Shown piece after piece: positions 517 through 21,361 of a DNA stretch of 64,000 bases. Under the pieces are notes generated by a model. That model searched no databases, had not been told where the DNA came from, and saw nothing but the letters and a program-made list of their open reading frames with translations. The DNA is from Patescibacteria group bacterium (GTDB taxonomy: Bacteria; Patescibacteriota; UBA1384; XYA2-FULL-43-10; 1-14-0-10-43-13), in NCBI GenBank assembly GCA_041674765.1, contig JBAYVE010000003.1, positions 2,040-66,039 of the forward strand. Direction: 5' to 3'. Made by a program: the position numbers and the translations under genes. Numbering within the stretch: position 1 is the stretch's first letter; each line of letters opens with the position of its first letter.

Positions 517-1137
517 CTAGTTCTCAAGATTTCCACTCAAGAATACTCTCTGATTTACAGGTATTCCAAACACATTAATCTGCAAATGCAGATGAGGACC
601 AGTTGACCAGCCCGTATCGCCTCGAGTGCCGATAATAGTTCCTAATTCAACTTCTTGACCTTCTTCAACGGCTATCGAATCAAGATGAGCATAGATTGAG
701 GTAATATGATGACCGTTATCAATTTTTACATGCTTCCCGAAGCCGGTTGCTGTTTCGCCTGCATAGATGACTTTTCCTTTCATGAAAGCACCGACCGGAT
801 CGCCGGTATTGCCTGCGATATCGATTCCAGTATGAAATAATTGATAAGGCGAGAGTTGTCCGAATTCGAGTGAAATATTGCCAGTTGTCGGCCAGATTCT
901 TGGCTCCTCAATAACATCAATAACTGATCCGTCAGATGGGTCATAGATTTCAACTAATGAAGTTATTGGATTAATGTTTGCCAGAACATCGGAAACAAAA
1001 TTAAAGCCTGCCTGAGTTAGGATTATGACGGTAAAAACAGGCAGCAAACAGATAATAGCAATGGTCCAAAAGAAAAGTTTGATCTCCTTTTTCATTGAAA
1101 AAGCAGCAATGATCAGTTTTAATGTTTGCGGATTCAT
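517..1137 (-). CDS. M23-family metallopeptidase (cell-wall hydrolase, likely the T4SS-associated lytic enzyme)
   Basis: Motifs HTGIDIAG (HxxxD) and GPHLHLQI (HxH). N-terminal TM helix. Start overlaps the VirB4 stop (1134-1137). Confidence 0.8.
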   Translation of the reverse strand: MNPQTLKLIIAAFSMKKEIKLFFWTIAIICLLPVFTVIILTQAGFNFVSDVLANINPITSLVEIYDPSDGSVIDVIEEPRIWPTTGNISLEFGQLSPYQLFHTGIDIAGNTGDPVGAFMKGKVIYAGETATGFGKHVKIDNGHHITSIYAHLDSIAVEEGQEVELGTIIGTRGDTGWSTGPHLHLQINVFGIPVNQRVFLSGNLEN

Positions 1138-2924
1138 TTTCTTTTAGAAATAATCTCTGTTGGATCAGTGGTAATTAAAGGATGTTCTTGCTCTGAAGCG
1201 GTCACTTTAACGGCGACATGGTGCTGATCTGCGATAATAAGGGCTTCACCTCGCTCACAAGTTAGTAAAAATCTTTGCTCAAATTCACTTAGATGGAACT
1301 CTGAAGCGACACCTTTAATAGTTGTGGTATCTTGGCGCATTAATATTCTTAGAGAACTTTGAGAAGCTATTGCTCGGCCGTAGACATTGCCCAGAAAATC
1401 ATTTGCCTGTTGAGAGATGATACTTACTCCTAAATAATATTTTCTTGCTCGTCTGACTAATCCGGCAATAAATCTGGCACTTTCCTCATGTTCAAGCAAA
1501 AGCCACGCTTCATCGATCACTAAGATTCTCTTGCAAGGGTCTGATTTAACTTGGTTTTGAACGAATTGAGCAATGACCAAGTGCATGATTTGCCGCAGGG
1601 ACTCTGGTAGATCTTTGGTATCAAAGACTACCAATCTATTATCTAGTTCAATGTTCGTTTGGGTATCGAAGACCTTAGATAATGAACCGGTCGTGTACTT
1701 TTCTAGTCTTTGGCAGAGTTTAACCTGCTTCATGCTGCGGAGAGTGACATATAGATCATAAAGCTTTGGATACGTTCGGGCATTTTTCTTTTTAATTGAG
1801 TTCTTCTGTGTCCAGCCGGCTTTTTGGTAAGTCTTGATGATTGCCTTGTCTACCACAGATTTCTCTTCGGCACTCAAGCCCTCGGCCATGAGCGAGATAA
1901 TTTCTGTTAAAGATTGGACATGATCGGCGAAGCCTTTTTCCTCTGAAAAAGCATTGACTTCAAGATCGAATGGATTGATCTTTTCTTTAGAATGAACGGA
2001 CAATTTAATATATGTGCCGCCAACAGATTCTGCGAGTCTTTTGTATTCTCTCTCGGGATCGATAACGATTACTTTGGTGCCCTGCATGAGGTGTCTTAAA
2101 ATTTCGACTTTGGCGGTGTAGCTTTTGCCTGAACCTGATTGAGCGAAGAGAATACTGTTGGCATTAGGTAAACTGAATCGATCGAGAATAACCAGTGAGC
2201 TATTTGATCGGTTGATGCCATAAAGTACGCCTGATTCATGAACAAGTTCAGAAGAGATAAAAGGAAAGGTTAAGGCGGCACTCGAACTATCAAGGTTTCG
2301 CTTTTGGCAAAGCTGGTTATCACAACGGGGTAAGACTGATTGCAATCCTTCAATTTGCTGAAAGATAGCAGGCTTAGTATAGAAAAGCCTGGTTGCAAGG
2401 ACGGTATCTAAGAGTTTGATCGTTTTGTTGAGTTCAGCTAAAGAATCGGCCGATAGTGTGATATATAGGGAAACTTGAAAAAGATTCTCCTGCCCTCGTT
2501 GGATTTTGTCCCGCAGATCCATGGCTGAGTCGAGTGGATCGGTTAGCTCCGAACCAATGATCTTTCCGGCTCTCTCCATCGCTCTCTTGGTTGAGATTAG
2601 CTCGGTGATTTTTCTATTAAGCTTAGGTAAAGCAAGAGTCGCATCCACAGGCTCGATGTGGTAAGCGATGTCCACGTTGTAATTAAAATTGATGAGATGA
2701 TTTAGCCATCCGCTTGATGCAGTGTAGGGATAGCCGGAGATGAAAAGAGTTTTCACAAATCTGCCGTCAATCTCAAGATGATTTTGAAATTCTTCAAGTC
2801 CTGAATAGGTTATAAAATCGAGTTGGTCTTGGTCGCCAAGGTGGAAAGATAGAGCCAAGTCCTTTTCTTTCTGCTGAGGAGCATGCTTCTTTTTAGCTTT
2901 CTTTTTTGTTTTAGAGAAAATCAT
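1134..2924 (-). CDS. virB4: VirB4/TrbE-like conjugation ATPase (ATPase domain)
   Basis: Walker A AQSGSGKSYT and Walker B VIDEAWLLL. Size and neighbourhood (VirB6-like, pilin-like, hydrolase) fit a T4SS. Confidence 0.8.
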   Translation of the reverse strand: MIFSKTKKKAKKKHAPQQKEKDLALSFHLGDQDQLDFITYSGLEEFQNHLEIDGRFVKTLFISGYPYTASSGWLNHLINFNYNVDIAYHIEPVDATLALPKLNRKITELISTKRAMERAGKIIGSELTDPLDSAMDLRDKIQRGQENLFQVSLYITLSADSLAELNKTIKLLDTVLATRLFYTKPAIFQQIEGLQSVLPRCDNQLCQKRNLDSSSAALTFPFISSELVHESGVLYGINRSNSSLVILDRFSLPNANSILFAQSGSGKSYTAKVEILRHLMQGTKVIVIDPEREYKRLAESVGGTYIKLSVHSKEKINPFDLEVNAFSEEKGFADHVQSLTEIISLMAEGLSAEEKSVVDKAIIKTYQKAGWTQKNSIKKKNARTYPKLYDLYVTLRSMKQVKLCQRLEKYTTGSLSKVFDTQTNIELDNRLVVFDTKDLPESLRQIMHLVIAQFVQNQVKSDPCKRILVIDEAWLLLEHEESARFIAGLVRRARKYYLGVSIISQQANDFLGNVYGRAIASQSSLRILMRQDTTTIKGVASEFHLSEFEQRFLLTCERGEALIIADQHHVAVKVTASEQEHPLITTDPTEIISKRK

Positions 2925-3528
2925 ATTCTCCTGTTCTTTTTATAATTGCCTGAGCCAATGGTTGAATTTTCGCCTGTTCTGGTCGGTAGAAACTGTAAAA
3001 TAAATCAAGTATTTCGAGACTTGAGAGTTGTCTTGCAGTCATGCCAATTTTTTCTAAACCTTTAATGATGATTTCCTGTTCGAGCATAAGCTGTTCTTTC
3101 ACTGTAGGAAAATCAACCTTTCCCTTATTGTCATGAGGAATTACAAGGTAAAATTTTCGAGAGAGAATTTTATTGCCAGAAACGAGCTTTTTAATGAACT
3201 CTGAATAATTTTTAAGTTGATCCTTGTAGATTGTTTCGGTTTCATTCTTAAGTTTCCCCTCGAAGTCCTCGAGATAACGGTCAATATCAAGTTCTCTGAC
3301 TCGGACCAAGATTTGAATCGGCATTGTCAGGCTGTTTAAGAAAGCTTGAAAAGCGTCAACGATCACATCCTGTTCTTCCTCGCTTTGGAGTTCAAAGTTT
3401 AAAGAAGAGGTCGATAGAATTGTACGATAGCGATCATCCGGCAAGATTAGAATTCCGTCTCTTACCTCCTTGATCCCGATTTGAGTTCGAGCTGAGCCGT
3501 TAGTTTTCGGCTTTTTTGAGTTCAACAT
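2911..3528 (-). CDS. VirB4 N-terminal-domain-like protein (VirB4 appears split into two ORFs)
   Basis: 205 aa with IKEVRDGILILPDDRYRTILSTSSLNFELQSEEEQ, resembling the N-terminal region of Gram-positive-type VirB4 (PrgJ/TcpF). Overlaps the ATPase ORF by 14 nt. The downstream ATG has its own AGGAGA RBS. Confidence 0.45.
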   Translation of the reverse strand: MLNSKKPKTNGSARTQIGIKEVRDGILILPDDRYRTILSTSSLNFELQSEEEQDVIVDAFQAFLNSLTMPIQILVRVRELDIDRYLEDFEGKLKNETETIYKDQLKNYSEFIKKLVSGNKILSRKFYLVIPHDNKGKVDFPTVKEQLMLEQEIIIKGLEKIGMTARQLSSLEILDLFYSFYRPEQAKIQPLAQAIIKRTGEYDFL

Positions 3529-4006
3529 TTAAACCTCCTTTCTTTGATGGTTTAAAAGAAAGCCTTACCAAATTTTCATTGAATAGCTGATCAATCTTTA
3601 TCTGGTCATGCAAGCTGATTGTTTTGGTGTTCTTGCTTTCCACTTTAATTTCTGTTTTCTTTGCTTCAGTAACTTTTGGTTCTTTGATAATAATTTCTCG
3701 ATGGATTGGGTCGTTTTTGGTAAAGATGTATCGCCTTGGACGGGAGTTGAAACGAAGTAAAATGACTAGCCATTCACCCAAGATCTTGCCGTTAAATCGC
3801 AAAGATAAACCGCCAAAGAAGATGAACTCGATCGCAATCAAGGTCATCTTAATAGTACCAAAGTGCATCTTGGGCATGACAACGGCATAGATCAGAGCGC
3901 CTATTACCATAGACATTACAAGGAGTACGATCTGGGGCAATGTTAAATTTCCGGCGATTCTATCTTCAACGGTGGTGATTTGGGCTGGCACTACTGTAGT
4001 TTTCAT
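3500..4006 (-). CDS. small 2-TM membrane protein at the VirB3/PrgI-like position
   Basis: 168 aa with two hydrophobic helices, then a Lys/Glu-rich tail. Sits between the VirB6-like and VirB4 genes, overlapping both. Confidence 0.35.
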   Translation of the reverse strand: MKTTVVPAQITTVEDRIAGNLTLPQIVLLVMSMVIGALIYAVVMPKMHFGTIKMTLIAIEFIFFGGLSLRFNGKILGEWLVILLRFNSRPRRYIFTKNDPIHREIIIKEPKVTEAKKTEIKVESKNTKTISLHDQIKIDQLFNENLVRLSFKPSKKGGLNVELKKAEN

Positions 4007-5286
4007 CTGGCGCTTGCTCCTCTCTTAACAGTTTCCTTAACAACGGTGGTATTCTTGGCATTGGATACTGAAATTACATTCATGATCTGGCCGCCAAGCT
4101 TTTTCATCATATTTGAAGATCCGCTCATTAAGGCTAGTTGGATTGCTGTTCCTGTGCTCTTCAGGAGAATCGAGAACAAGGCAATACCGATAAGGATTGA
4201 AATGACCGGATTTGCTCCGACCTGTCCGGGGACTGTAAGGAAAGCGGAAGCAAGCTGAATTATGACTACATGGATAAAAACGGTAAAAATGGTGATGAAA
4301 TATGCCTTTGTTAGATTTGCGGCAAAATCTGCCATACTTGGGATTAGCGCAATTGCGCAGACAAGCGGAGAGATTACAGCACCGAAGGCAAGAATCATAA
4401 GGCGCGAGATGTAGAAAAGAAGTAAGACTGCTGCAAGGATGATGAAGATAATAACGAAGATTAAGGTAATGAGCGCAGTTGTGCCACTCAGAAAACTTGC
4501 CGGATCAAAAGCATTTAATATCCAAGCTGTACCTAATCCTCCAGTGGCATTTAAAATGGAATTAACTAATGTCTGGCAAAGCTGAATAACCCAATCAATC
4601 AAAAAGATTGAGGTGTTAGCTCCGACAAAAGCTAGGGCAACTTTGGGCCAAAGATCTTTCAAACTCACTTCTTCAAGGCCAAAGGTGCTTCCGCTCATCA
4701 CTCTAAAGCCAAGCAATGCAATGATGATCGCAAAGAGTGAATCTGTGATTCCGACCATGACTAACCAAAAATTAAAAACAACAGAATTTGAAGCTAATGA
4801 TGGAGTAGAAGTCAGAAACCAAGTTATGCCGTCAAGGACCGGTTTAGTGGCCGACTGGATGATATTTTGCAAGAAGCCAAAGATAGCATCAATAATGACT
4901 TGGGCTAAAGAGTTATCAGATTCTACTGGCTCAATCGGACTCATATTTAGAGCAGTTCCAGTTGCGTTATTGGCAGGCTGTGTCATCGCGCTATTTAGCA
5001 TTGAGCTAAAAACAAAAGCCCCAATAACGATTATTAAACCAATTAAGGCGTTTCTAATCGTTCTCTTTGCTTCATCGAGAGCAGCAGGATTGCCGGTTGA
5101 AGTGATATACAAATACCCGCCACGAACAAGGAAGAAAACCACAGCAACAGAAGCAAGACCGATCAAAGCGGTCATGGCGTCATGAGTGAAATTCTCAACC
5201 TCTGGATTGGAAGCGGCAAAGGCGATGGCGGGAGAAAACAGAATAGCGCAAAAGAGAATAATTTTAGTGATTACTCTTTTCATCAA
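4003..5286 (-). CDS. polytopic membrane protein, VirB6/TrbL-like, with an N-terminal pilin-like domain
   Basis: 427 aa with a signal peptide (AFAASNPE) and many TM helices. N-terminal segment RGGYLYITSTGNPAALDEAKRTIRNALIGLIIVIGAFV is paralogous to the adjacent 116-aa pilin-like protein (GGIGYITSSGNPENLDRSKKTLVYSSFGLAISIAAFV). Confidence 0.55.
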   Translation of the reverse strand: MMKRVITKIILFCAILFSPAIAFAASNPEVENFTHDAMTALIGLASVAVVFFLVRGGYLYITSTGNPAALDEAKRTIRNALIGLIIVIGAFVFSSMLNSAMTQPANNATGTALNMSPIEPVESDNSLAQVIIDAIFGFLQNIIQSATKPVLDGITWFLTSTPSLASNSVVFNFWLVMVGITDSLFAIIIALLGFRVMSGSTFGLEEVSLKDLWPKVALAFVGANTSIFLIDWVIQLCQTLVNSILNATGGLGTAWILNAFDPASFLSGTTALITLIFVIIFIILAAVLLLFYISRLMILAFGAVISPLVCAIALIPSMADFAANLTKAYFITIFTVFIHVVIIQLASAFLTVPGQVGANPVISILIGIALFSILLKSTGTAIQLALMSGSSNMMKKLGGQIMNVISVSNAKNTTVVKETVKRGASAR

Positions 5287-5290
5287 GGAA

Positions 5291-5641
5291 TTAGTTGAAT
5301 GCGTTCTTTGCTAAATCAGTAACAATGTTAGAAATAACGAAAGCAGCAATTGATATTGCTAAACCAAAACTTGAATAAACAAGTGTTTTCTTTGAACGAT
5401 CTAAATTCTCTGGATTGCCTGACGAAGTGATATATCCAATACCGCCTACTACAAAAAAACCGGCTGCTAATAGACCGGCAATGGTGACGAGGACTTGGAT
5501 AACGTTTTGTGCAAAGTTTTGTACTTTTGCGATATCGCCAGAATCAGCAAATGCCGGTGTTGCTGAAATTAATAGTACGATAAAGGAGAGACCAAGAGGC
5601 CGGAGACGTTGTAACATGATAACCCAACTTTCTCCCCTCAC
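5291..5641 (-). CDS. pilin-like protein (VirB2/TrbC-like), first gene of the T4SS-like operon
   Basis: 116 aa with a signal peptide ending ...PAFADSG and two hydrophobic helices. Shares a motif with the N-terminus of the next gene. Confidence 0.5.
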   Translation of the reverse strand: MRGESWVIMLQRLRPLGLSFIVLLISATPAFADSGDIAKVQNFAQNVIQVLVTIAGLLAAGFFVVGGIGYITSSGNPENLDRSKKTLVYSSFGLAISIAAFVISNIVTDLAKNAFN

Positions 5642-7958: not shown

Positions 7959-9227
7959 TCATATTACGCCGAGAGTTCTCCCTGCATAAGCAAGTGCATC
8001 GAGCAATTGCTCGATTTTTGATTCGTCCTTTGCGATGGCATAACAGATATTAATCCGTACCATCGCCTCGTCGATTCCGACGGCAGGTGCGAAATACGCT
8101 GGTGCGAAAAGTCCGCGCTCAAGCAGAATCTCCGCTGCAGCCTTCGCCTTCTGCTCTTCAAAGAAACGGACAGGAAGGATTTGGGTTTCGCAACCCAAGG
8201 TGTCAAAACCCAGTTCTTTGAGACTGCTATTGATATTATCAGCAGCCTCAAGAACTTTCGTTCGGCGCCAAGGTTCCCGTTCAAGAAGATCGAAGACCTC
8301 GAGCAGAGCCGCCGCATTGCCTGGCGACATCGATGTTTGGTATACGTGTGTTCGGCACTGGACTCTCATTTCCTCGCAAAAGGCATGAGTGCCGGTAATG
8401 TACCCACCTTCAACACCGAAAGCCTTGCTTAAGGTACCAATGTTGAAATCAACGCCGTCTTCGACGCCAAAATGTTCGGCCGTGCCTGTTCCAGTGTGCC
8501 CGTACAAGCCAGCGCCATGTGCGTCATCGACGTAAACGGCAGCACCATAGTTATTCGCAAGTGCAACAATTTTGTCGAGGGGAGCCAAACGACCATGCAG
8601 AGAGAAGACTCCATCCGTCAAGATGATCTTGATTGGTGCGGTCGAACTCTGAAGTCTCTTTTCAAGATGATCCATATTGCGATGCTTGAAGCGATTGGCT
8701 TCGACAGCACCGCCGGAAAGTCGAGAAGTTGCCTGACGGATCCCGTCAATGATACTAGCGTGAACCAGCTCATCGAATATAAGATCCACAGGCTGATTGA
8801 TCGACTCCATAACAGTCGGATCCAGAAGACGGATCGCACTTCGAAGTGGTGGTGATGCCAAAGCGACAATAATGCCGATATTGGCAAGATAACCACTGGA
8901 GAATAGCACTGCGTCTTCGGTGCCCTTGAAACGGGCGATCCGTTGCTCGAGCTGTTGATGAAGACTGGTTGTCCCAGACGTAATCCGGGAACCGCCACTG
9001 CCTACACCTAAGAGTGAACTTGCAGCATTAGCTGCCGCAATCACTTTGGGGTGTTGACTGACAGAGAGATAGCTGTTTGTCGAAACATCCAAGCATTCTC
9101 TGTCATCGATAATTGCTGTCCCATCATTATCACGACTTATGATCGAATGATAATGTGGGTAGAATTTGCCTGCCTCAAGTGTTTGCTGGCTGGCATTCAA
9201 ACGGTTTTTCAGCGCTTCGCTAATCAT
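7959..9227 (-). CDS. PLP-dependent class-II aminotransferase of the alpha-oxoamine synthase family (AONS/KBL/SPT-like)
   Basis: GTLSKAFGVEGGYITG PLP-lysine motif and the DDAHGAG motif. The track start (TTG, 9242) was replaced by the ATG at 9227, which is preceded by GAAGGAGGA. GC content is about 50% against about 35% in the flanks. Confidence 0.85.
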   Translation of the reverse strand: MISEALKNRLNASQQTLEAGKFYPHYHSIISRDNDGTAIIDDRECLDVSTNSYLSVSQHPKVIAAANAASSLLGVGSGGSRITSGTTSLHQQLEQRIARFKGTEDAVLFSSGYLANIGIIVALASPPLRSAIRLLDPTVMESINQPVDLIFDELVHASIIDGIRQATSRLSGGAVEANRFKHRNMDHLEKRLQSSTAPIKIILTDGVFSLHGRLAPLDKIVALANNYGAAVYVDDAHGAGLYGHTGTGTAEHFGVEDGVDFNIGTLSKAFGVEGGYITGTHAFCEEMRVQCRTHVYQTSMSPGNAAALLEVFDLLEREPWRRTKVLEAADNINSSLKELGFDTLGCETQILPVRFFEEQKAKAAAEILLERGLFAPAYFAPAVGIDEAMVRINICYAIAKDESKIEQLLDALAYAGRTLGVI

Positions 9228-9396
9228 CTTGTCCTCCTTCAATCATCGACAAGGCGATAATGGCAATTTGACAGCAAATGCTGCCGATTTGATTGCCAGC
9301 CTCTACACAGTCTGTTCTCAGTATCTCAAGTTGCCTTATTATAGCGGCAGCTTGATTCACCTGAGTTTCAGAACACTCAAGCTTGTCTGCTGCCAT
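9220..9396 (-). CDS. 58-aa Cys-containing small protein translationally coupled to the alpha-oxoamine synthase
   Basis: ATG at 9396 is preceded by AAAGGAG. Product MAADKLECSETQVNQAAAIIRQLEILRTDCVEAGNQIGSICCQIAIIALSMIEGGQDD. Stop overlaps the AOS start (ATGATTAG). No DSL phosphopantetheine motif, so not a canonical ACP. Confidence 0.4.
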   Translation of the reverse strand: MAADKLECSETQVNQAAAIIRQLEILRTDCVEAGNQIGSICCQIAIIALSMIEGGQDD

Positions 9397-9640
9397 AGGC
9401 AACTCCTTTCAGTTTTCAATGTACTCTACGCTCATTGTATCATAGCGAGAGATGTTATATCTTACCATAATAGCGTTAGTTTGTCAATCGGTTGGGGATT
9501 GATTTGATCTGTTTCATGGCCATTGATCCCTCGCCATTGGAAGTTCTTACAAAAAAAGCTTGCATAAAGGAAGAAAATCTGGTATGGATTACAATAGTAG
9601 CATTTGCTAAGTACACAGACATCACCAACCGGAGGGAAAC

Positions 9641-10735
9641 ATGATCACTTGGCTTCCGCATCTAGCGCACGAACCGTTCCCTTATGATCCGGAATGCCAT
9701 CTTATGTTTGATCGCCACCGAGCTGAAAGTAATATTTCATACTTGGTCTCAACATTTGGCATGAACGATGAAAGGGTTGCTTATCTCTTGGATATATTTG
9801 CTGACTACTCAGAATCCATGTCTTTTGTTAGAAAAGCTGGTTTAATTCAAGAACAAGCCGAATTGTTGAGCATAGTGGATATGAACTATGCCGGTACGGT
9901 TAGTAACGAAAATGAATTCAATACTCTTATTAAAAGGACTATTGATATTCAAAAACCGACTGTCTTTCTCTCAGACACTCATTCGAGTACTGGATTAGTG
10001 CTTAGTGTTTACGAGAAGAACGTGAGGGGTAATACAAAATTTCGGACAGGGGTTGTATGTGTCGATTCACATGCTGACCTGTACGACCACTCACAACCAC
10101 TTTGGAAGGGTAATGTATTTTCGTCACTGATCCATGCCGGCACCGTTCAAGCGATGGTTATTGTCGGAGTACCTCATTTTCGTCAAATTAGTATCCGAAG
10201 TGAATTGACCAATAGTATGAATCAACGAGTGGTTATGCTTGAGGACTTAAATGACCGAGATGAGGTTAATCAAGCTATTGCTTGGCTGGGTGATCAGAAT
10301 ATCAATCAGGTTTTCTATTCGATCGATCTTGATGGTTTGACCACAAGAAAATTGCAGTTGACTGCAATGGAATATTGTCCTTTTCATATCTTGCTCAATC
10401 TTGCAAAATATGAATTGACAGGGCTAAACAAAGATCAGATCGATGAACATCTTGATGATATCATTCGTCCCCCCAGCCATCAGCAACTTGGACGACGAAA
10501 TTTGTTTCACATTGGTGATAACGGATTAAACACTGGAGAACTAATCAAATTTCTTGAAATTTGTTTTGGTTTCTTCAGTCATAAAGGAATCAATAACGGT
10601 ATTAAGGTCGATCGACATTCGATCGTCGGCGATATCGTTGAGCTTTTTGGCCCGGATGTCGGGTCAAGGACAGCGGTCGAAGTCGCTAAAATTGCGCAAG
10701 CATTATTAGTGAACTCTGCCAAATACTCGAAGTGA
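9641..10735 (+). CDS. arginase/ureohydrolase-fold metallohydrolase-like protein
   Basis: Degenerate arginase-family motifs in the canonical order: LSDTHSS (cf. GGDHS), VCVDSHADLYD (cf. DAHxD), YSIDLDGL (cf. SxDxDxxDP), VGDIVELFGPD (cf. DxVExnP). GC-rich, same island as the radical-SAM genes. Confidence 0.5.
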   Translation: MITWLPHLAHEPFPYDPECHLMFDRHRAESNISYLVSTFGMNDERVAYLLDIFADYSESMSFVRKAGLIQEQAELLSIVDMNYAGTVSNENEFNTLIKRTIDIQKPTVFLSDTHSSTGLVLSVYEKNVRGNTKFRTGVVCVDSHADLYDHSQPLWKGNVFSSLIHAGTVQAMVIVGVPHFRQISIRSELTNSMNQRVVMLEDLNDRDEVNQAIAWLGDQNINQVFYSIDLDGLTTRKLQLTAMEYCPFHILLNLAKYELTGLNKDQIDEHLDDIIRPPSHQQLGRRNLFHIGDNGLNTGELIKFLEICFGFFSHKGINNGIKVDRHSIVGDIVELFGPDVGSRTAVEVAKIAQALLVNSAKYSK

Positions 10736-10750
10736 AGAAAGGAGCAGCCG

Positions 10751-10825
10751 ATGAAGTCCATCTTCAAAGCCAAAGTCAAATCTTTGGTCGAAAAACCGAT
10801 TGCCTATAACTGTCGCCGGGGCTGA
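10751..10825 (+). CDS. 24-aa candidate precursor peptide MKSIFKAKVKSLVEKPIAYNCRRG
   Basis: Not in the 60-aa ORF track. ATG is 7 nt after an AAAGGAG RBS. Lies between the arginase-fold gene stop and the first radical-SAM/SPASM gene, and is followed by a GNRA-tetraloop hairpin. Confidence 0.4.
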   Translation: MKSIFKAKVKSLVEKPIAYNCRRG

Positions 10826-10868
10826 ACCGCGGTGAACGACTCATGAGAGTCATGGACTAGGGGGTGGC

Positions 10869-10890
10869 GAAAGCCGCCCCCTTCTTGCTA
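10869..10890 (+). promoter_or_regulatory. stable stem-loop (9-bp stem, GAAA tetraloop) between the candidate precursor peptide and the rSAM gene; no U-tract
   Basis: GGGGGTGGC-GAAA-GCCGCCCCC: 8 Watson-Crick pairs plus one G-U. Followed by the RBS GAGAGGAG of the rSAM gene. Geometry typical of precursor/enzyme stoichiometry attenuators in RiPP operons. Confidence 0.45.
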
Positions 10891-10907
10891 CAAGAGAGGA
10901 GACTGCT

Positions 10908-11975
10908 ATGGGAGAACTGAGTGTGATCGCAATCACCTTCACTAATCGTTGTAATCTCAGCTGCGTACATTGTGGCCGAGAACAGGATTTGTCTCACTGC
11001 ACAGAAAAAGATGCGGCCTTCTTTATCAACATATTGAAAGAAGGACGTACGCTTGGAGCAAATCAGGTCAACATAACCGGTGGCGAAATTTTCTGCCGCC
11101 ATGATTGCTTTGACTTGATCCAAGGTGCAATTGACCTCGGGTACTTCGTAAGTATTGAGTCAAATGGTACATTGATTACACAACCATCAATTGACCGTTT
11201 ATCGTCTTATGGCGACGCCATAAGAGTCTCAATCAGCGTTGATGGTCTGACCGCCGAGACTCACGATGCCATTCGCGGTACCGGAACCTTTGATGTCACT
11301 ATGGCTACTATTCAAGAATTGAAGAAAGCTGATGTGCCTACAAGGATAATCACGGTATTACACCGCCAAAACATCGGACAAATCCCTCAGATGGCCAGAC
11401 ACTTTGTCGATGATATGGGTCTGGGCTTTCGCTTGTTGCCAAATATTATGGAATATGGCAAGGGCGTATATGCCTGCAACACCTACGGCATTGAATTCGA
11501 TGAAGCAATGGCACTATTAGAGGGATTCTACTTCGATTTCCTGCGGGAAAAAGCATCGGACAATGTCACGCTGGAGATAAACGTGGCTTTGGCGCCGATG
11601 GATATCAATCAATTTTGTCTCTGTCCTTGGGGAAAGGCAATGGTTGGTATTGGTCCAACGGGAATTGTAAGCCTTTGTCACGTTTCATATCATGATGAGC
11701 GATTTGTTTTCGGCAATTTGGAAAATACTTCGCTTACGAAGATATGGAATGAAAGTACCATGCTGGATGCGTTCAGAAATCTGGACACCAATACCCTGAA
11801 AGGTGTCTGCGGCAACTGTCTTGCGCGAGAAATTTGCCGTGGTGGCTGCCGACTGCATGCTATTACGAAGTACGGAGATTTTCTCGCTCCCGATCCTTAC
11901 TGCCAGACGGTCTATGATCTCGGGAAATTCCCAGATTATGCCCTGGATAATGATGATAAGGATTGCTCTTTCTGA
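10908..11975 (+). CDS. radical SAM enzyme with a C-terminal SPASM domain (peptide-modifying maturase family)
   Basis: CNLSCVHCG (Cx3Cx2C). GGEIF SAM-binding motif. C-terminal CGNCLAREICRGGCRLHA and CPWG, plus a GNLENTSLTKIWN SPASM-like segment. Confidence 0.85.
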   Translation: MGELSVIAITFTNRCNLSCVHCGREQDLSHCTEKDAAFFINILKEGRTLGANQVNITGGEIFCRHDCFDLIQGAIDLGYFVSIESNGTLITQPSIDRLSSYGDAIRVSISVDGLTAETHDAIRGTGTFDVTMATIQELKKADVPTRIITVLHRQNIGQIPQMARHFVDDMGLGFRLLPNIMEYGKGVYACNTYGIEFDEAMALLEGFYFDFLREKASDNVTLEINVALAPMDINQFCLCPWGKAMVGIGPTGIVSLCHVSYHDERFVFGNLENTSLTKIWNESTMLDAFRNLDTNTLKGVCGNCLAREICRGGCRLHAITKYGDFLAPDPYCQTVYDLGKFPDYALDNDDKDCSF

Positions 11976-11988
11976 TAGGAGTATCAAG

Positions 11989-13335
11989 ATGTTAAGAATC
12001 TCACGATTCGTGCACTTCCTCCACGGAGGTCAAATTCTGTGGAATGCGCTCACCTTCTCAATGATTAAGAATGCCAATGGTCTCGGGAAAATGATTGACA
12101 TAAACAATCATGACCCAAAGCCCGATTCTTTTTGGCAAGAGATGCTTGGGGGAAAATTACCCCAGATGCTCTCCGGTGGCTTTCTGGTAACAGACCAGCA
12201 GGAAGACAACTTGCTGCAAAAAGCTACTGAGGAAGCATCGTCAAGAAGCATTCAGAATCTCTACTTGATCATGACAAATCGGTGCAATTTGGCCTGTTCC
12301 TACTGCCTTTACGGAACAAAGAACAGCCAAACGTTGGATTTGGAAAATCAAGCGATGTACATGTCAGAGCAAGTGGCCGGAAATGCCATTGAGTGCTTTG
12401 CTGAGATCACCAAGTCGAATCCTCACACTGATGGATACTGGCAGCAAATCACCTTCTATGGCGGCGAACCCCTGTTAAACGTCGACGCTTTAGAAGCATC
12501 TGTTGACGCGGTTCTTCGACTAAAGCGCAATGGATTACTCTGGGATGACACCAATTTGGTTATCAATACCAATGGTGTATTGATTAACGATCAGTCAATT
12601 GACTTGATCAAAAGGGGCAATATCGAAGTACAGATATCAATCGATGGCTTTGCAGACGTCCATGACAAAAATCGTTACATGCTCACCAGAGATGGTTCCA
12701 CTGGCAGTTTCGATTATGTGGTCAATGCGCTGCAAAGGTTGACTTGTGCTGGAATTTCAGTGACCCCGATGATTACTGTAACCGAGGACAATCTCGGCAC
12801 TCTCGATCAATTCGTGGTATGGCTCTGCAAGGAGTTCAGTATCAAATCATATGGGATGAGTATCCTTATGAGTGGAACTGGCAAAACAGCAGAAGATTAC
12901 CCCGAAAGAGCGGCAGAGATGATGTATAAAACGTATCTGGCCGCCTCGGGCTATGGAGCCTACGACTATGCGCTTCAAGACCAACTAGAAGGATTGTTTG
13001 GTCCACGAATCGCCAAGCAGGAGTGCGGTGCCGGTCGGAAATTAACAGTATTTCCGGACGGAATGCTACATACCTGCCAGGCACTTGAAGCAACAGGTCT
13101 GACGTCTGTTGGAAAATTGCCCGTATTCGAACAAGCAGAATCAAACTGGCAGAACTGGAGCCAGCGCTCACGTTTCCAGAATCCAGCTTGTCTGGAATGT
13201 CCTGTCCTGGGTGCTTGCGGAGGTGGCTGTGCGGCAGGATCGTTTCACTCCTCGGGTGATATCAATCAGATTGATCCCAACAAGTGTAATTGGACTAAGT
13301 CTCTTTTTAATCTGCGACTTTCCACTTGCACGTGA
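11989..13335 (+). CDS. second radical SAM/SPASM enzyme
   Basis: Start moved to ATG 11989 (RBS GGAG; the track ORF began inside the upstream gene). CNLACSYCLYG Cx3Cx2C. GGEPLL motif. C-terminal CLECPVLGACGGGCAAGS. Confidence 0.85.
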   Translation: MLRISRFVHFLHGGQILWNALTFSMIKNANGLGKMIDINNHDPKPDSFWQEMLGGKLPQMLSGGFLVTDQQEDNLLQKATEEASSRSIQNLYLIMTNRCNLACSYCLYGTKNSQTLDLENQAMYMSEQVAGNAIECFAEITKSNPHTDGYWQQITFYGGEPLLNVDALEASVDAVLRLKRNGLLWDDTNLVINTNGVLINDQSIDLIKRGNIEVQISIDGFADVHDKNRYMLTRDGSTGSFDYVVNALQRLTCAGISVTPMITVTEDNLGTLDQFVVWLCKEFSIKSYGMSILMSGTGKTAEDYPERAAEMMYKTYLAASGYGAYDYALQDQLEGLFGPRIAKQECGAGRKLTVFPDGMLHTCQALEATGLTSVGKLPVFEQAESNWQNWSQRSRFQNPACLECPVLGACGGGCAAGSFHSSGDINQIDPNKCNWTKSLFNLRLSTCT

Positions 13336-13341
13336 CAAACC

Positions 13342-13377
13342 GGCGCCGAGCTTACCACTCGGCGCCTTTGCTTTATC
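13342..13377 (+). terminator. rho-independent terminator closing the GC-rich island
   Basis: GGCGCCGAG-cttacca-CTCGGCGCC perfect 9-bp stem followed by TTTGCTTTATC. Confidence 0.6.
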
Positions 13378-13402
13378 AACTGAAAAATAGTACTATTTTT
13401 AT

Positions 13403-14320
13403 ATGAACGATATTTTATTGCCAAAAAAAATTTGTAAGGGTGATACCATCGGAATTATTGCTCCGTCCCGACCTGTTTATAATATTGAAGAAAAAATCAA
13501 AAAAGGCGCTGAAGTCCTTGAGGATATGGGATATAAAGTCGTATTTGGCAGGAATATAAAAAAACAGTTGTATTACTCTGCAGGCACGCCACAAGAAAGA
13601 GCCGATGATCTGAACGAAATGTTCTCCAATCCCAAGATTAGTATGATTTTGTGTGCAACAGGCGGCATTACCTCTAACCAATTACTACCATATATTGATT
13701 TTGATATTATCAAAAATAATCCTAAGCCATTTATAGGGTACAGTGATATTACAACCCTTCTTTTGGCAATTTATAAAAAAACAGGATTAGTAACATTCCA
13801 TGGTCCTGATTTAAGTGATATTGCCGGATTAAATAAAGACGCTCTCCAGTTCCTTTTTAACTTATTGTCTGGAGAAATTAAAAACAAGACCTTATCTCAG
13901 GATATAGAAATAATACAAGAAGGTACGGCCATCGGAAAGTTAATCGGTGGAAATATATACCTAATAAATGGACTTTTAGGAACTCCGTTTTCTCCATCCT
14001 TAGATGGCTCAATATTCTTTTGGGAAGAGACAGGTGTGCCACCAGCAATGGTTCATCAGGAACTTATGCATCTGAAACTTGCCGGAGCATTAGATGATAT
14101 CCGCGGAATAGTGATTGGTCATTTATCTGATTGCATTGATAATAAATACGAGAACGAAAATCGATCAATTAACGAGATAATCATTGAGGTGATAAATAAT
14201 AAAAATATACCCATCATAAAAGTCGACTCTTTTGGTCATGATATAAATGATTTCTATACATTTCCGATAGGACTCAATGCTGAGATCGACACAGTAAAAA
14301 AATATTTTTCATTGAAATAG
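13403..14320 (+). CDS. LD-carboxypeptidase (peptidase S66, LdcA/MccF family)
   Basis: GDTIGIIAPS N-terminal motif. GYSDITTLL Ser nucleophile motif. Length 305 aa. Confidence 0.8.
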   Translation: MNDILLPKKICKGDTIGIIAPSRPVYNIEEKIKKGAEVLEDMGYKVVFGRNIKKQLYYSAGTPQERADDLNEMFSNPKISMILCATGGITSNQLLPYIDFDIIKNNPKPFIGYSDITTLLLAIYKKTGLVTFHGPDLSDIAGLNKDALQFLFNLLSGEIKNKTLSQDIEIIQEGTAIGKLIGGNIYLINGLLGTPFSPSLDGSIFFWEETGVPPAMVHQELMHLKLAGALDDIRGIVIGHLSDCIDNKYENENRSINEIIIEVINNKNIPIIKVDSFGHDINDFYTFPIGLNAEIDTVKKYFSLK

Positions 14321-14377
14321 ATGATCTAAAAGTTAAATGCCCACCAGTCAATTGATGACTGATGGGCAAGTGTAGCA

Positions 14378-15991
14378 CTATCCGCCACATAGGCACCCCC
14401 TGGTGATCGTTAAGACACGATCAATGTTTGTATTACCAGTGAAGTCCTTGTCATGGCTGACAATGATGAGCGCTCCTTGATAGTTAATCAGAGCGTTTTT
14501 TAGAATTTCTCTTGACCGTGGGTCAAGATGGTTGGTCGGTTCATCGAGGAGGAGGCAATTGGCTCCACTTAGCATTATCTTGCATAAAGCCAATCTCGCT
14601 CGCTCGCCTCGACTCAAAGTGCCAACTTTTTGGTTAATCTGATCCTGGAAGAAAAGAAAGTGGGCTAACGCTGAACGGAGATTCTTTTCTTGAACATCCG
14701 AGTTCGCTAATCTTGCTTCCTGCAGAACTGTATTTCCATCATCAAGACCCTCCTGTTCCTGCTGATAGAAACCGATCGTGAGGTTGTGATTCCGCTTCAC
14801 CGTTCCAGAATCGGGCGAAAGCATTCCGGATAATATCCGGAGGAAAGTGGTCTTGCCAGCACCATTATCACCGTGCAATAGCAGACTTTCAGTTGGAGCA
14901 AGCTCCAGAGAGATATCCCTTAGGACAACTCTTGATCCATACGACTTCTTCACATTGCGGGCTTGAAATGCGGCACCGTTCAAAGATCGGGCAATAGGAA
15001 AGCTTATATCAAGTTTTTTCTGCTTTTGTTTTGCAGGCAACTTGGTTTTAAGCTTGGCTACAACCTTCTCTCTGTCATGTTTCATTCCAACTTTGCTCTG
15101 AGGCGCATTACGTATGAAACGTTCTAGTCGTTCGATCTCAGCAGAAATCGAGCCTCTTTCCTTGCCCTGTCTCTCCATCTCAGCCGTCCGCAATGATACG
15201 AACTTTGAGTAGTTGCCAGGGTAAGATTTTAGAACTCGGTCTGCTCCATCGAGATACAGAATTCTGTCGACTACCTGATCCAGCATCGCTGGTAAATGAG
15301 AGACGACAAGAATTGACTGTTGTACACGAGATAGATATTGGCAAAGCCACGAATAAGCGGCTTCGTCAATATGATTCGTTGGTTCGTCCATGACTAGCAA
15401 GTCAGACTGCTCATAGAGCATCCTGGCCAATGCCACCCGTGATTTCTGTCCGCCACTTAATGTCTTGACTAGCTGAAAAGGATCGACATCAGCTAATCCC
15501 ACACCGGAGAGCAATTCAAGGATATCGTTTTCAGATCGATATCCTTCACGCTCTGTATATCTTTCCTGTAGCTTGAAGTAGTCGGTTAGTAAAGAATCGT
15601 CAGGAATGAAGCCAGGAGATTCCATTGCCTTCTCGATCTCTTCGATTCTGGCGACAATCTTACGTAAACCTCTACCATCAAGCATGTAGGACAAGATATC
15701 CAAATTGGCCGAATTGCCATCTACAGATAGAAACTGTGGAATATATGAGTATGGTTTTGGTGAACCATGATTGGTGAACCTTACGGAGCCCTGGTCAGGC
15801 AGCAGTTCCTTGACAATCACCTTTAGAAGCGTTGTCTTACCAGCACCGTTATCACCTACAAGTCCCACCTTTTCGCCATCTCGTATATTCACAGAAACAT
15901 TTTGCAGAATGACTCTTTCTCCGAAAGATACAGAGACCTCTTTGACAATTAGCACCTCATTTACCTCCTTTGATCTGTATGAGAAGCGCAA
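14378..15991 (-). CDS. ABC-F family ATPase (two tandem ABC domains, no TM domain; EttA/Uup-like)
   Basis: Two Walker A motifs GDNGAGKTT and two signature motifs LSGGQKSRVALAR and LSRGERARLALC. 537 aa. Confidence 0.85.
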   Translation of the reverse strand: MRFSYRSKEVNEVLIVKEVSVSFGERVILQNVSVNIRDGEKVGLVGDNGAGKTTLLKVIVKELLPDQGSVRFTNHGSPKPYSYIPQFLSVDGNSANLDILSYMLDGRGLRKIVARIEEIEKAMESPGFIPDDSLLTDYFKLQERYTEREGYRSENDILELLSGVGLADVDPFQLVKTLSGGQKSRVALARMLYEQSDLLVMDEPTNHIDEAAYSWLCQYLSRVQQSILVVSHLPAMLDQVVDRILYLDGADRVLKSYPGNYSKFVSLRTAEMERQGKERGSISAEIERLERFIRNAPQSKVGMKHDREKVVAKLKTKLPAKQKQKKLDISFPIARSLNGAAFQARNVKKSYGSRVVLRDISLELAPTESLLLHGDNGAGKTTFLRILSGMLSPDSGTVKRNHNLTIGFYQQEQEGLDDGNTVLQEARLANSDVQEKNLRSALAHFLFFQDQINQKVGTLSRGERARLALCKIMLSGANCLLLDEPTNHLDPRSREILKNALINYQGALIIVSHDKDFTGNTNIDRVLTITRGCLCGG

Positions 15992-16141: not shown

Positions 16142-16642
16142 ATGGAAACGAATTTTCGTAAACTGACAATCGAGGATCTACCACATCGAATAAAATGGCT
16201 CAATGATCCGGAGATAAATAAGCACCTTGGTACTAGGGTTAGAACTGGCACTGATGAAGAATTTCACAAGAAATGGTTTGAGTGTTATTTTAGTGATGAT
16301 TTCAGAGAGATATTTACAATTGAAGTGGATGGCAAGCCAGTTGGTCAGGTGGGACTGCTTGATATCAACCCACTGGATAAGAATGGCTGTCTATATATTA
16401 TAATCGGTGAAAAAAATTATTGGGGTAAGGGTATCGGATCGCAAGCAATGGAATTCATCCTTAATTATGGATTCGATACGCTAGGGCTTCACAAAATATG
16501 GCTAGAAGTTTATGCCAGTAACTCAGCAGCAATAAAGCTGTATAAAAAGTTTGGTTTTAATAATGAAGGTATATACAAGGATCAAGTTCTCTATCCAGAT
16601 GGATTCGTCGATGAAATAAGAATGGCTAAATTTCAAAATTAA
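16142..16642 (+). CDS. GNAT N-acetyltransferase, RimJ/RimL/MccE-C-terminal-domain type
   Basis: Acetyltransf_3-like layout: IGEKNYWGKGIGSQAMEFILNYGF...LHKIWLEVYASNSAAIKLYKKFGFNNEG. Confidence 0.75.
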   Translation: METNFRKLTIEDLPHRIKWLNDPEINKHLGTRVRTGTDEEFHKKWFECYFSDDFREIFTIEVDGKPVGQVGLLDINPLDKNGCLYIIIGEKNYWGKGIGSQAMEFILNYGFDTLGLHKIWLEVYASNSAAIKLYKKFGFNNEGIYKDQVLYPDGFVDEIRMAKFQN

Positions 16643-20481: not shown

Positions 20482-21246
20482 TTATAGAATAGTTGAAACA
20501 GAATTGCTAACAATATCATCCTTGGCAACAATAATTATTTTAATATTTTCCATTTCCTCATTTTCAGTAAGCATTCTTTTCGTGAACTTCCTGATTTGGG
20601 TTATTAATTCAATTTCACAGATTAAAATAACTATCGGGAAATCTTCGCCAGTATTATCTTCCCAGCTGTTTGAAAAGTAAAAATCAAAGTAATTTTTAAT
20701 TCTTTTTCTAATTGAGTATGTTGGCAAGTTAGATTCGAATAACTCAACGAGGTAATGTTTTCTTTTGCAACCTTCCGCTTTTTCAATCACTAGATCAAAA
20801 GTGGTTTCGGTTAAAAAATAGTAATCCGAGCTGAGACTAGAAAAGCCGGAACTCGTTGTTACTTTATATGATACATTCTCATCACTCTTATTCCTAAAAT
20901 TAATAAAAATATCGCCGATCAATTGGCATTTGGTGATACAAGAGTCTTTGCGATCTTTTTCCCGATGCAGTTTCTTGAGCTGCTCTTTAGAACAATCAAT
21001 TAATGTCTTAATGAGTTTTATTCCGTTTGGTCCCATGTAGTAAACAGCCGGTTTAGTTCTCTCTATATATTTTTCGCAATAGTTTCTGTTTAGGTATTCT
21101 TTTTCTGTTAGGTCTTTAAGCCATTCGTTTATTAGTCTGTAATCTTTGTGTTTTAGGAGAGCTTGAATTTGGATCCGGTTTAGGAATCTGAAGTGATAGA
21201 TATATTTAAGTATTTCTTGTTGTTTGTTTGTTATTTTAGGTATCAT
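20482..21246 (-). CDS. replication-relaxation family protein (conjugative/mobilisable-element associated wHTH protein)
   Basis: N-terminus ITNKQQEILKYIYHFRFLNRIQIQALL matches the recalled replication-relaxation family pattern (LTxRQxEILxxLxRFRFLTxxQIxxL). Confidence 0.5.
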   Translation of the reverse strand: MIPKITNKQQEILKYIYHFRFLNRIQIQALLKHKDYRLINEWLKDLTEKEYLNRNYCEKYIERTKPAVYYMGPNGIKLIKTLIDCSKEQLKKLHREKDRKDSCITKCQLIGDIFINFRNKSDENVSYKVTTSSGFSSLSSDYYFLTETTFDLVIEKAEGCKRKHYLVELFESNLPTYSIRKRIKNYFDFYFSNSWEDNTGEDFPIVILICEIELITQIRKFTKRMLTENEEMENIKIIIVAKDDIVSNSVSTIL

Positions 21247-21285
21247 ATTTTTTTTGAGGGAGCATTACTTTTTTATTTTCCCTTA

Positions 21286-21321
21286 CACCTACCATACCAT
21301 ATGTATATGTAATGGTAAGTG
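21286..21321. promoter_or_regulatory. imperfect inverted repeat around a CATATGTATATG core, upstream of the replication-relaxation gene
   Basis: CACCTACCATAC-CATATGTATATG-TAATGGTAAGTG; the arms are near-complementary (about 10 of 12). Confidence 0.35.
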
Positions 21322-21361
21322 GACAATATTTTGTAATTTTGATCTTAAAATAGGTCTCTTT

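Follow-up and report, generated by a model that had tools for sequence, protein, structure and literature searches.

The window analysed here, a 64-kb stretch (64,000 nucleotides) of the 135-kb contig JBAYVE010000003.1 from a Patescibacteria group bacterium, contains a compact gene cluster built around a very short peptide gene. On the plus strand lie genes for an arginase-fold ureohydrolase, a 24-residue peptide, two radical S-adenosylmethionine (SAM) enzymes with C-terminal SPASM-type cysteine clusters (rSAM1 and rSAM2) and an S66 serine peptidase, interspersed with two hairpins, and a gene for an ABC-F ATPase is transcribed towards them from the minus strand. To the left, also on the minus strand, lies a gene for an AONS-family enzyme whose start is overlapped by a 58-residue open reading frame (ORF). 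A first-pass annotation had drawn a single unit at 7959-13385, comprising the AONS gene, the 58-residue ORF, the arginase fold, the 24-residue ORF, a hairpin, the two radical SAM genes and a terminator-like hairpin. All of these exist, and the conserved unit is now redrawn to 9.4-16 kb of the window: the AONS gene and the 58-residue ORF fall outside it, and the S66 and ABC-F genes belong to it. ABC-F, the most informative accessory gene, was absent from the earlier unit. Judged from the sequence, the redrawn unit is likely to be the biosynthetic cassette of a previously undescribed family of peptides made by the ribosome and modified after translation (RiPPs), carried as cargo on a conjugative element.

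The peptide gene and its companion enzymes

The peptide gene, MKSIFKAKVKSLVEKPIAYNCRRG (10751..10825, plus strand), encodes 24 amino acids and has an AAGGAG ribosome-binding site 6 nt upstream. With the arginase-fold protein as marker, loci were collected from assemblies, representative genomes and metagenomes, and every locus with both an arginase and an rSAM1 gene was found to have a homologous small ORF between the two, preceded in each case by a strong Shine-Dalgarno sequence. The 18 distinct peptides are 24-32 residues long and align without gaps from F5 to the C-terminus (G24). F5, N20, C21, R23 and G24 are invariant; Y19 is conserved in at least 90% and replaced by F in one case, K8 is common, and positions 9 and 12 are hydrophobic. 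The peptides end in [Y/F]-N-C-x-R-G-stop, where x is R, K, G, C or Q, and an N-terminal motif, F-x2-K-[VILM]-x2-[LMIV], stands at a fixed distance from this end. In six-frame translations of the metagenome-derived loci (L022-L037), NC.RG followed by a stop codon occurs only at the position of the peptide gene, and the codons of the motif vary synonymously between lineages. Two loci (L009 and L012) each contain two tandem copies of the gene, each copy with its own ribosome-binding site. The peptide is matched by no NCBIfam or Pfam model, and a search of the literature for YNCxRG-type motifs returned plant RALF peptides only and no bacterial example. We infer that residues 1 to approximately 18 form a leader and that YNCRRG is the core.

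In three Paceibacterota-type loci (L007 ~8112, L008 ~9175 and L022 ~2586), the conserved part of the peptide begins 5' of any ATG, GTG or TTG. In all three, GGAGGTG is followed at a distance of 5 nt by an ATA codon, which may be a non-canonical start.

The arginase-fold protein (9641..10735, plus strand; 364 aa) matches PF00491 (6.6e-8, above the gathering score). H114, D142, H144, D146, D229, D231 and E334, which we take to be the binuclear manganese ligands and the guanidinium-binding glutamate, are invariant in alignments of 16 and 21 sequences, the latter spanning three phyla. The AlphaFold 2 (AF2) model has a predicted local distance difference test (pLDDT) value of 90.2, and its best matches in the PDB are agmatinases and arginases with modest template modelling scores (TM-scores) of 0.45-0.59. 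By sequence and model, the protein is probably an active, divergent ureohydrolase. It is a candidate peptide arginase, and conversion of arginine to ornithine in the peptide is rather likely. The family is rare: 17, and later 45, clusters at 90% identity were found among 5.8 billion proteins. Its motifs are SDTHS, DxHxD and SIDxDG and not those of OspR-type enzymes; Pfam reports PF00491 only, with no match to PF12640, and no chain named OspR or peptide arginase is among the 36 matches of a PDB profile search. The arginase profile searches brought up no protein with a name from Enterococcus or Streptococcus. In a separate radical SAM protein of 545 aa (P0164), a segment is 35% identical to part of the arginase-like protein; this may be a fusion or a gene-call artefact.

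Both radical SAM enzymes contain the Cx3Cx2C motif and a C-terminal cluster of cysteines. rSAM1 (10908..11975, plus strand; 355 aa; PF04055 and PF13186) has no N-terminal extension. Its best models are AhbD, MftC (135.8 against a cutoff of 265) and PqqE (134.4 against 381), with scores far short of the cutoffs, and among solved structures PqqE (6c8v) is the nearest. Across phyla, orthologues share 47-95% identity, and the clade is isolated: a search of 1.84 billion proteins gave a single full-length 50%-identity representative, after which identity falls to 39% or less. rSAM1 may introduce a second radical modification. rSAM2 (11989..13335, plus strand; 448 aa; PF04055) has an N-terminal extension of ~87 aa and matches SPASM maturase models over its full length; its start at 11989 is backed by the gene call and by orthologue alignments. 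rSAM2 scores best with models of thioether-forming peptide maturases (FibroRumin, PapB, SCIFF and QhpD), though again far below their cutoffs. The closest solved structure is 5wgg (8e-20), presumably CteB, with the alignment beginning at residue 96 of 5wgg. The scores with the anaerobic sulfatase maturase model TIGR03942 (83 bits, cutoff 349) and the FlmE/OhkG model (76 bits, cutoff 500) are low, and neither rSAM1 nor rSAM2 reaches the cutoff of any curated NCBIfam radical SAM family. rSAM2 is a candidate thioether-forming maturase acting on Cys21, and the balance tilts slightly in favour of a cysteine thioether in the product.

The spacer between the peptide gene and rSAM1 contains the GAAA-loop hairpin (10859..10882, plus strand) and folds with -37.2 kcal/mol (z of -4.1 against shuffled sequences). 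A hairpin is present at this position in 16 of the 17 folded loci, with differing sequences and often with a run of T after it; z lies between -2.3 and -5.7 in 15 loci (-2.9 to -5.7 in 14 of them) and is -1.2 in L016. L022, a short contig without rSAM1, has no such hairpin. The L006 hairpin shows compensatory changes in the stem. The hairpin probably acts as a leaky terminator or stabilises the mRNA, and so sets the precursor-to-enzyme ratio, and the layout of peptide gene, hairpin and radical SAM gene is the usual arrangement of RiPP operons. A second hairpin lies between rSAM2 and the S66 gene (13342..13376, plus strand) and resembles an intrinsic terminator: a 9-bp stem with 8 GC pairs (hairpin 13342-13366) is followed by the T-rich tail TTTGCTTTAT. 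Neither the window nor L006 gave a match in Rfam and tRNA scans, which thus point to no known riboswitch or tRNA integration site.

Comparison with L006, which shares 85.8% DNA identity with the window over 7.3 kb, bears on both spacers. The peptide gene is 100% identical, and no identical run in the block is longer than the 112 nt (10749-10860) that cover this gene and 35 nt downstream, where ~16 differences would be expected from the identity of the block. The spacer between rSAM2 and S66 is 98.5% identical. Both 10749-10860 and 13224-13423 (from the 3' end of rSAM2 on past the terminator, 98-99%) scarcely vary, synonymous sites included, which hints at RNA-level constraints or recent gene conversion.

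The arginase-fold gene, the gene for a peptide of 24-32 aa, the hairpin, the two radical SAM/SPASM genes and an ABC-F gene occur together in no fewer than 20 independent loci, which belong to Patescibacteria, Clostridiales, Bacilli and Muribaculaceae. The five genes of the core (for the arginase-fold hydrolase, the short precursor, rSAM1, rSAM2 and ABC-F) recur in three phyla, in two layouts. In Patescibacteria (Paceibacterota, Berkelbacteria, Kerfeldbacteria and further lineages), one strand bears the arginase-fold gene, a gap of 170-360 nt, rSAM1, rSAM2 and S66, and a convergent ABC-F gene follows downstream. The other carriers are a Clostridiales metagenome-assembled genome (MAG), several uncultured Bacilli from rabbit gut, human-gut contigs and a Muribaculaceae MAG. 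In these Firmicutes and Bacteroidota loci, ABC-F, the arginase-fold gene, the gap, rSAM1 and rSAM2 follow one another on one strand without S66, and the stop codon of ABC-F abuts or overlaps the arginase start. The flanking genes differ in every lineage, and when the neighbouring genes of the Firmicutes-type loci were compared all against all, only ABC-F, the arginase fold, rSAM1 and rSAM2 proved to be conserved. The GC content of the cassette exceeds that of its flanks in several Patescibacteria lineages (0.532 versus 0.383 in L009; 0.508 versus 0.360 in L025) and equals that of the host in Firmicutes and Bacteroidota.

The first-pass annotation had recognized here the logic of a short peptide and radical SAM/SPASM maturases, and this idea is borne out: the 24-residue ORF, with its invariant F5, N20, C21, R23 and G24, is kept in every homologous cluster, and neither radical SAM enzyme reaches the cutoff of a known non-peptide family. 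A genuine, conserved peptide-maturation cassette is very probable. The literature search found no paper that joins radical SAM enzymes, an arginase, ABC-F and a RiPP, and the cassette probably represents a RiPP family for which no earlier description was found. Mycofactocin- or PQQ-type systems, anaerobic sulfatase maturases and OspR-type systems were considered as identities and rejected on family cutoffs or motifs.

Two loci contain decayed-looking cassettes (L021 6240-8336 and L036 107-1952), in which ABC-F is followed by an arginase-like fragment and peptide and radical SAM genes are missing. Directly 3' of rSAM2, L014 has a single-module nonribosomal peptide synthetase (NRPS; C-A-T-TE, 11998-15966) and L028 has an AMP-binding enzyme (10428-12284). 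The two share no homology beyond the adenylation fold (23% identity) and are absent from other loci, and they were rejected as cassette members. In a plasmid database, the arginase-like protein had no orthologue, and rSAM1 had only relatives of at most 32% identity. PADLOC reported only generic similarities to radical SAM (pVip) and ABC ATPase proteins and gave no support for a defence system.

Accessory genes and a proposed pathway

The ABC-F ATPase (14378..15955, minus strand; 525 aa) is of the ribosomal-protection type, scoring 405.7 with NF000355 (cutoff 380); the ABC-F proteins of L019 (425.2) and L028 (415.5) also pass this cutoff. It scores below the cutoffs of the EttA, Uup and YbiT-type models and reaches no cutoff of the named antibiotic-resistance (ARE) subfamilies (Vga, Msr, Lsa, Sal, OptrA and producer type). 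The GC content of the gene tracks that of the cassette and not of the flanks. We propose that ABC-F protects the ribosome of the producer. That the product has a ribosomal target is a serious prospect, if a little short of an even one.

The S66 serine peptidase (13403..14320, plus strand; 305 aa; PF02016 and PF17676) is MccF-like: in the PDB it matches MccF immunity proteins with 182 bits and true LD-carboxypeptidases with 81-97 bits. Its gene is situated directly 3' of rSAM2 in every Patescibacteria locus that extends that far and is absent from the Firmicutes and Bacteroidota copies. Pairwise identities of S66 follow those of the other four genes, which indicates that it is a long-standing member of the Patescibacteria version; a role in immunity or in C-terminal trimming is proposed. 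The GC content of the gene is 0.33-0.38 in six of the seven Patescibacteria copies examined and 0.417 in L008, with a GC content at third codon positions (GC3) of ~0.3 (e.g., L009 11836-12753 and L025 4053-4940). Replacement by a host paralogue was rejected as the source of the low GC content, as the pairwise identities track the cassette. Beside ABC-F lies a GNAT acetyltransferase gene (Acetyltransf_3, RimL/MccE-like; 16142..16642, plus strand), which is also present in L006. A weakly related GNAT gene directly follows rSAM2 in rabbit-gut Bacilli (L017 5853-6290 and L018 7880-8317), and none was found in the other loci. GNAT may be a lineage-specific accessory that provides additional immunity or tailoring.

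The nearest precedent for the pairing of an arginase with radical SAM chemistry is enteropeptin (KGR), the original study of which is reportedly that of Clark, Covington and Seyedsayamdost in Nature Chemistry in 2022. In view of this precedent, the statement in the first-pass annotation that the accessory enzyme set matches no pathway familiar to it is not supported. Enteropeptins are products of the kgr cluster of Enterococcus cecorum and Streptococcus thermophilus, in which a Mn-dependent PF00491 arginase (KgrD) makes ornithine on a Cys/Arg peptide cross-linked by a radical SAM enzyme, and a further Fe-S enzyme tailors the product (PMC12703449, PMC12395415, PMC12445099). They derive from ..KGRCPPS.. 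(PMC12395415, PMC12445099).

By analogy, the cassette might work as follows. The ~18 N-terminal residues would serve as leader and YNCxRG as core. rSAM2 would link the sulfur of the invariant Cys21 to a neighbouring residue as a thioether. If the acceptor were the alpha-carbon of Asn20, a six-membered thiomorpholine would form as in enteropeptin; if it were the alpha-carbon of Arg23, a nine-membered C-x-R ring would result, which would explain the free variation of x. The arginase-fold enzyme would turn Arg23 into ornithine, as KgrD does in enteropeptin biosynthesis, and rSAM1 would add a second radical modification in the form of a cross-link or an oxidative step, with Tyr19 or Gly24 as possible sites. 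The hairpin would keep the level of precursor mRNA above that of the enzymes. ABC-F would shield the ribosome of the producer, which would imply that the product targets translation, and S66, with GNAT where present, would supply extra immunity or trimming.

Several points weigh against this scheme. All of the chemistry is read from homology and gene context. The comparison with KgrB, KgrC and KgrD was made by description and not by sequence; by that description, the core has the order and spacing C-x-R where enteropeptin has R-C, and the second Fe-S enzyme is a radical SAM/SPASM protein and not a KgrB-type Fe-S methyltransferase. No PqqD or RiPP recognition element (RRE) Pfam model matched the first 100 residues of eight rSAM2 orthologues at E values up to 10, and the AF2 model of rSAM2 from a single sequence (pLDDT 37.6) is unusable for the RRE question. 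Relatives of the arginase-fold protein with ~31% identity occur without radical SAM genes or a YNCxRG peptide in a Bathyarchaeota genome (L013 8001-9104) and in an archaeal-looking contig with a gene for ribosomal protein S26e (L011 8001-9104), and the enzyme family is therefore wider than the cassette. An adjacent ABC-F gene is missing from L007 and L008, the only such cases in Patescibacteria, and ABC-F proteins also have housekeeping and regulatory roles, so that a ribosomal target is not proven. The AT-rich S66 gene lies between neighbours, rSAM2 and ABC-F, whose GC3 reaches 0.6-0.7. Finally, the neighbour comparison of the Firmicutes-type loci found no conserved dedicated leader protease or exporter, which is a weakness of the antibiotic reading and leaves room for other roles.

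Of the alternatives, the one that survives best keeps the RiPP cassette and changes the role of ABC-F, which would be a translation or regulatory factor, either in LmrC-like signalling or as an aid to translation or termination of the precursor; the product would then have another target or role, for example as a signal or self-inhibitory peptide. ABC-F proteins do act as translation factors and as signal transducers of clusters (PMC8546547, PMC12421871), enteropeptins and related radical SAM RiPPs (RaS-RiPPs) are narrow-spectrum and self-inhibitory with an unknown target, and the lack of an exporter would fit. Against this stand the scores of ABC-F, above the ribosomal-protection-like cutoff and below the housekeeping cutoffs, and its strict co-transfer across phyla with matching GC content, as expected of a resistance gene. 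This alternative is unlikely, and self-protection remains the proposed role of ABC-F.

A peptide-derived redox cofactor of the PQQ or mycofactocin type, in which the C-terminal residues would be cross-linked, excised by S66 and used as a cofactor, is quite improbable. The affinities of rSAM1 (MftC and PqqE among the best models, PqqE as the closest structure), the short precursor with an invariant C-terminus that includes Tyr and Gly, and the absence of an exporter or leader protease would fit such a pathway. However, rSAM1 scores far below the MftC (136 versus 265) and PqqE (134 versus 381) cutoffs, no cofactor-dependent dehydrogenase is conserved beside the cassette, and the tight linkage of ABC-F would have no role there. 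The rare, patchy distribution on mobile DNA and the absence of S66 from the Firmicutes and Bacteroidota copies also speak against it.

It is more improbable still that the small ORF encodes a regulatory arrest peptide, with a ribosome paused at ...RG-stop melting a terminator hairpin and so controlling the radical SAM genes, and that the enzymes act on a non-peptide metabolite, the arginase on a free guanidino compound. The order of small ORF, hairpin and genes fits such control, the hairpin begins 3-9 nt after the stop codon in several loci, the invariant residues immediately precede the stop, and the gene and its 35 downstream nucleotides are identical to L006 even at synonymous sites. ABC-F genes, moreover, are often regulated through ribosome-dependent attenuation. 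Yet the hairpin does not overlap the ORF and lies 33 nt downstream in the window, and the tandem peptide genes of L009 and L012 have their own ribosome-binding sites. The nearest relatives of rSAM2 are all peptide maturases, the invariant Cys and Arg are just the residues on which the two enzyme types present would be expected to act, and enteropeptin provides a precedent.

The putative signalling module and the surrounding element

The AONS-family (BioF/KBL-like) pyridoxal-phosphate enzyme (7959..9227, minus strand; 422 aa; PF00155, 1e-43) is followed on the same strand by genes for a HisKA_7TM sensor histidine kinase (6240-7880) and a stand-alone receiver-domain response regulator (5805-6191), both assigned by Pfam. 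The enzyme scores 329 bits with the bioF model, below its cutoff, and is below the cutoff of the KBL model as well; both models outscore the CqsA-type model NF005526 (178.7 bits, cutoff 428). Homologues that share 45-54% identity with it make up a subfamily apart from canonical BioF. The order of AONS, sensor kinase and small receiver protein recurs in three further loci (P0019, L039/L040 and L041). Pfam flags HisKA_7TM in the P0019 locus and in L039/L040, and the L041 kinase is 34% identical to that of the window over almost its full length. Divergence matches across the three genes (57%, 55% and 53% identity in L039; 34%, 29% and 49% in L041). In a published survey, 51 CqsA homologues of the candidate phyla radiation (CPR) were already found next to CqsS-like kinases (PMC7567580). 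In view of this published synteny and of the synteny with kinase and regulator seen here, AONS is best read as the synthase of a CqsA/CqsS-like module, and the three genes, by their sequences, as a separate signalling module outside the peptide cassette.

The 58-residue ORF (9220..9396, minus strand) is a putative gene, called as such on the source contig. It has no family match and no tblastn match beside the related AONS genes of L038-L041, and was rejected as a second precursor for lack of conservation. In the P0019 locus, a 55-residue ORF overlaps the AONS start.

The first-pass annotation had treated AONS as an accessory enzyme and the 58-residue ORF as a partner peptide of one pathway at 7959-13385. 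The adjacent genes do share the divergent intergenic region 9397-9640, AONS is the most GC-rich gene of the region, and other radical SAM genes are found in the vicinity of its homologues in the P0019 locus, L038 and L041, but AONS and the 58-residue ORF occur in no other cassette locus of the three phyla, including L006 (86% identical, with homology beginning only at ~9425, just outside the ORF), AONS keeps company with an orthologous kinase and regulator in four loci, the ORF has no detectable homologue beside three related AONS genes, and the conserved cassette extends beyond the proposed island to S66 and ABC-F, so that a single pathway is highly improbable.

The preferred reading thus keeps two neighbouring units, and the module may or may not regulate the cassette. 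It stands beside radical SAM genes in three of its four loci, and a regulatory link is therefore possible; the putative signalling module may also be a recurrent neighbour of radical SAM clusters in CPR. In the P0019 locus it is near a 49-residue ORF and a radical SAM gene, and in L041 (9788-13230) near a B12-radical SAM gene and a radical SAM/SPASM gene. In L038 (9326-10930), a related AONS gene without kinase and regulator is near an 80-residue ORF and a radical SAM gene. Just upstream of the cassette in L004 (4020-6857), a lineage without AONS, is a gene for a 945-aa hybrid HisKA_7TM-GAF histidine kinase/receiver; a 7TM kinase beside the cassette therefore recurs.

Cassette and signalling module are situated between two arms of a conjugation gene set, both on the minus strand. 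The left arm (517..5641) encodes an M23 peptidase, a VirB4/TraG-type ATPase, TraC-like and PrgI proteins, type IV secretion system (T4SS) pilins and TrbC; the right arm (20482..24044) encodes a Replic_Relax protein and a type IV coupling protein (TrwB/TraD-like). A large serine recombinase gene lies just left of the window (L001 1-573), and the window contains no tRNA. By its gene content, the region looks like an element of the integrative and conjugative type (ICE-like) in a Patescibacteria genome, with the flagged region as cargo. Beside the conjugation genes (24319-30822) are defence-type genes for a GmrSD-like endonuclease, an SNF2-family helicase and an N6/N4 DNA methylase.

Base composition had originally set the flagged region apart as an island of ~50% GC in DNA of ~35%. 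The shift is real: windowed GC content at 7959-13385 is 0.459, the highest of all 5.4-kb stretches (mean 0.388, standard deviation 0.026; window mean 0.389 over 64 kb). Its size is smaller than stated, 0.459 against 0.388, and it is uneven, with values of 0.498 for AONS, 0.446 for the 58-residue ORF, 0.407 for the arginase-fold gene, 0.457 for rSAM1 and 0.468 for rSAM2. To the right of the proposed boundary, S66 has 0.347 and ABC-F, further right, 0.455; a single uniform island does not describe this pattern, in which an AT-rich S66 gene lies between GC-richer rSAM2 and ABC-F. Nor does the terminator at 13342-13377 form the right border or mark the end of the cassette, because S66 and ABC-F are part of the conserved unit, which continues to ~15955. 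Horizontal acquisition, by contrast, is well supported as proposed: the flanks differ from locus to locus, the cassette exceeds its flanks in GC content in several lineages, and an element with T4SS, relaxase and recombinase genes surrounds it.

Implications and comparison with known systems

A broader reading, which we regard as tentative and on balance doubtful, would combine these elements. The cassette would make very small ribosomal peptides that contain a thioether and ornithine and bind the bacterial ribosome, with the co-transferred ABC-F as dedicated immunity, and would be the first RiPP family so defined. In Patescibacteria it would move on a conjugative element beside a CqsA/CqsS-like module and may serve episymbionts against their host bacteria or to manipulate them, and the same chemistry would occur in uncultured Firmicutes of human and rabbit gut. 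The most unusual features of the cassette are its linkage to ABC-F and its spread across phyla, including CPR.

If the assignment is true, the cassette defines a previously unrecognised RiPP family with an unusually small, rigidly conserved six-residue core, adds a second PF00491 arginase with a peptide as its substrate together with two uncharacterised radical SAM/SPASM enzymes, and carries a built-in pointer to its target (ABC-F, and hence the ribosome). Clusters with their own target-related resistance gene are prime candidates for new translation inhibitors. CPR bacteria have minimal genomes and few known secondary metabolites, and a mobile, antibiotic-like cassette by a putative quorum-sensing module would bear on how they interact with their hosts. 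With five genes in ~5 kb and no special protease needed, the cassette is well suited to heterologous expression.

Among known systems, the signalling module resembles CqsA/CqsS and LqsA/LqsS/LqsR in that an AONS-family enzyme is encoded beside a multi-pass membrane sensor kinase and a receiver protein. It differs from CqsA/CqsS in that the CqsA-type model gives its AONS a lower score than the BioF and KBL models do, and in that the N-terminus of its kinase matches HisKA_7TM. The immunity genes recall microcin C: S66 is closest to MccF structures, and a RimL/MccE-like GNAT gene lies beside the cassette in the lineage of the window. In contrast to microcin C, there is no MccB-type adenylating enzyme, the precursor does not end in Asn, and S66 is confined to Patescibacteria. 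ABC-F genes embedded in biosynthetic clusters are known from LmrC, OleB, CarA and VarM and the ARE ABC-F proteins, and cluster-encoded ABC-F has precedent in self-resistance or signalling (PMC8546547); the cluster described here is of the RiPP type, and no report of such a link was found in the literature.

Regarding the maturases, rSAM2 shares its architecture of N-terminal extension, Cx3Cx2C motif and Cys-rich C-terminal SPASM region with CteB/SCIFF, PapB/ranthipeptide and sactisynthase enzymes. The precursors of those enzymes contain several cysteines, whereas the cassette peptide has a single Cys in a six-residue core. OspR-type enzymes (PF12640; landornamide, FlmR/OhkR) likewise convert Arg to Orn in RiPP precursors, some of them in clusters with radical SAM/SPASM maturases; their motifs have been listed, with PDB entry 8BRP (PMC12703449). 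They differ from the arginase-fold protein, which belongs to PF00491, and their precursors are of the DD(I/V)LF, NHLP, Nif11 and SCIFF types.

Enteropeptin biosynthesis shares the most with the cassette: a short precursor, a conserved Cys and Arg close together in the core, a small final product to be expected, a thioether from Cys (predicted here) made by a radical SAM enzyme, an arginase of PF00491 and not of the OspR family PF12640, and an extra Fe-S enzyme. The cassette motif [Y/F]NCxRG stands at the extreme C-terminus, in contrast to the internal KGRC of enteropeptin precursors, and no methyltransferase is conserved in the cassette. The cassette adds ABC-F and, in Patescibacteria, the MccF-like peptidase, no Rgg/SHP regulator was seen, and its hosts are Patescibacteria, Clostridiales, Bacilli and Muribaculaceae MAGs. 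Thus, although the cassette has neither the enteropeptin core motif nor its methyltransferase, the enteropeptin pathway is the closest known system, and the cassette would work alike.

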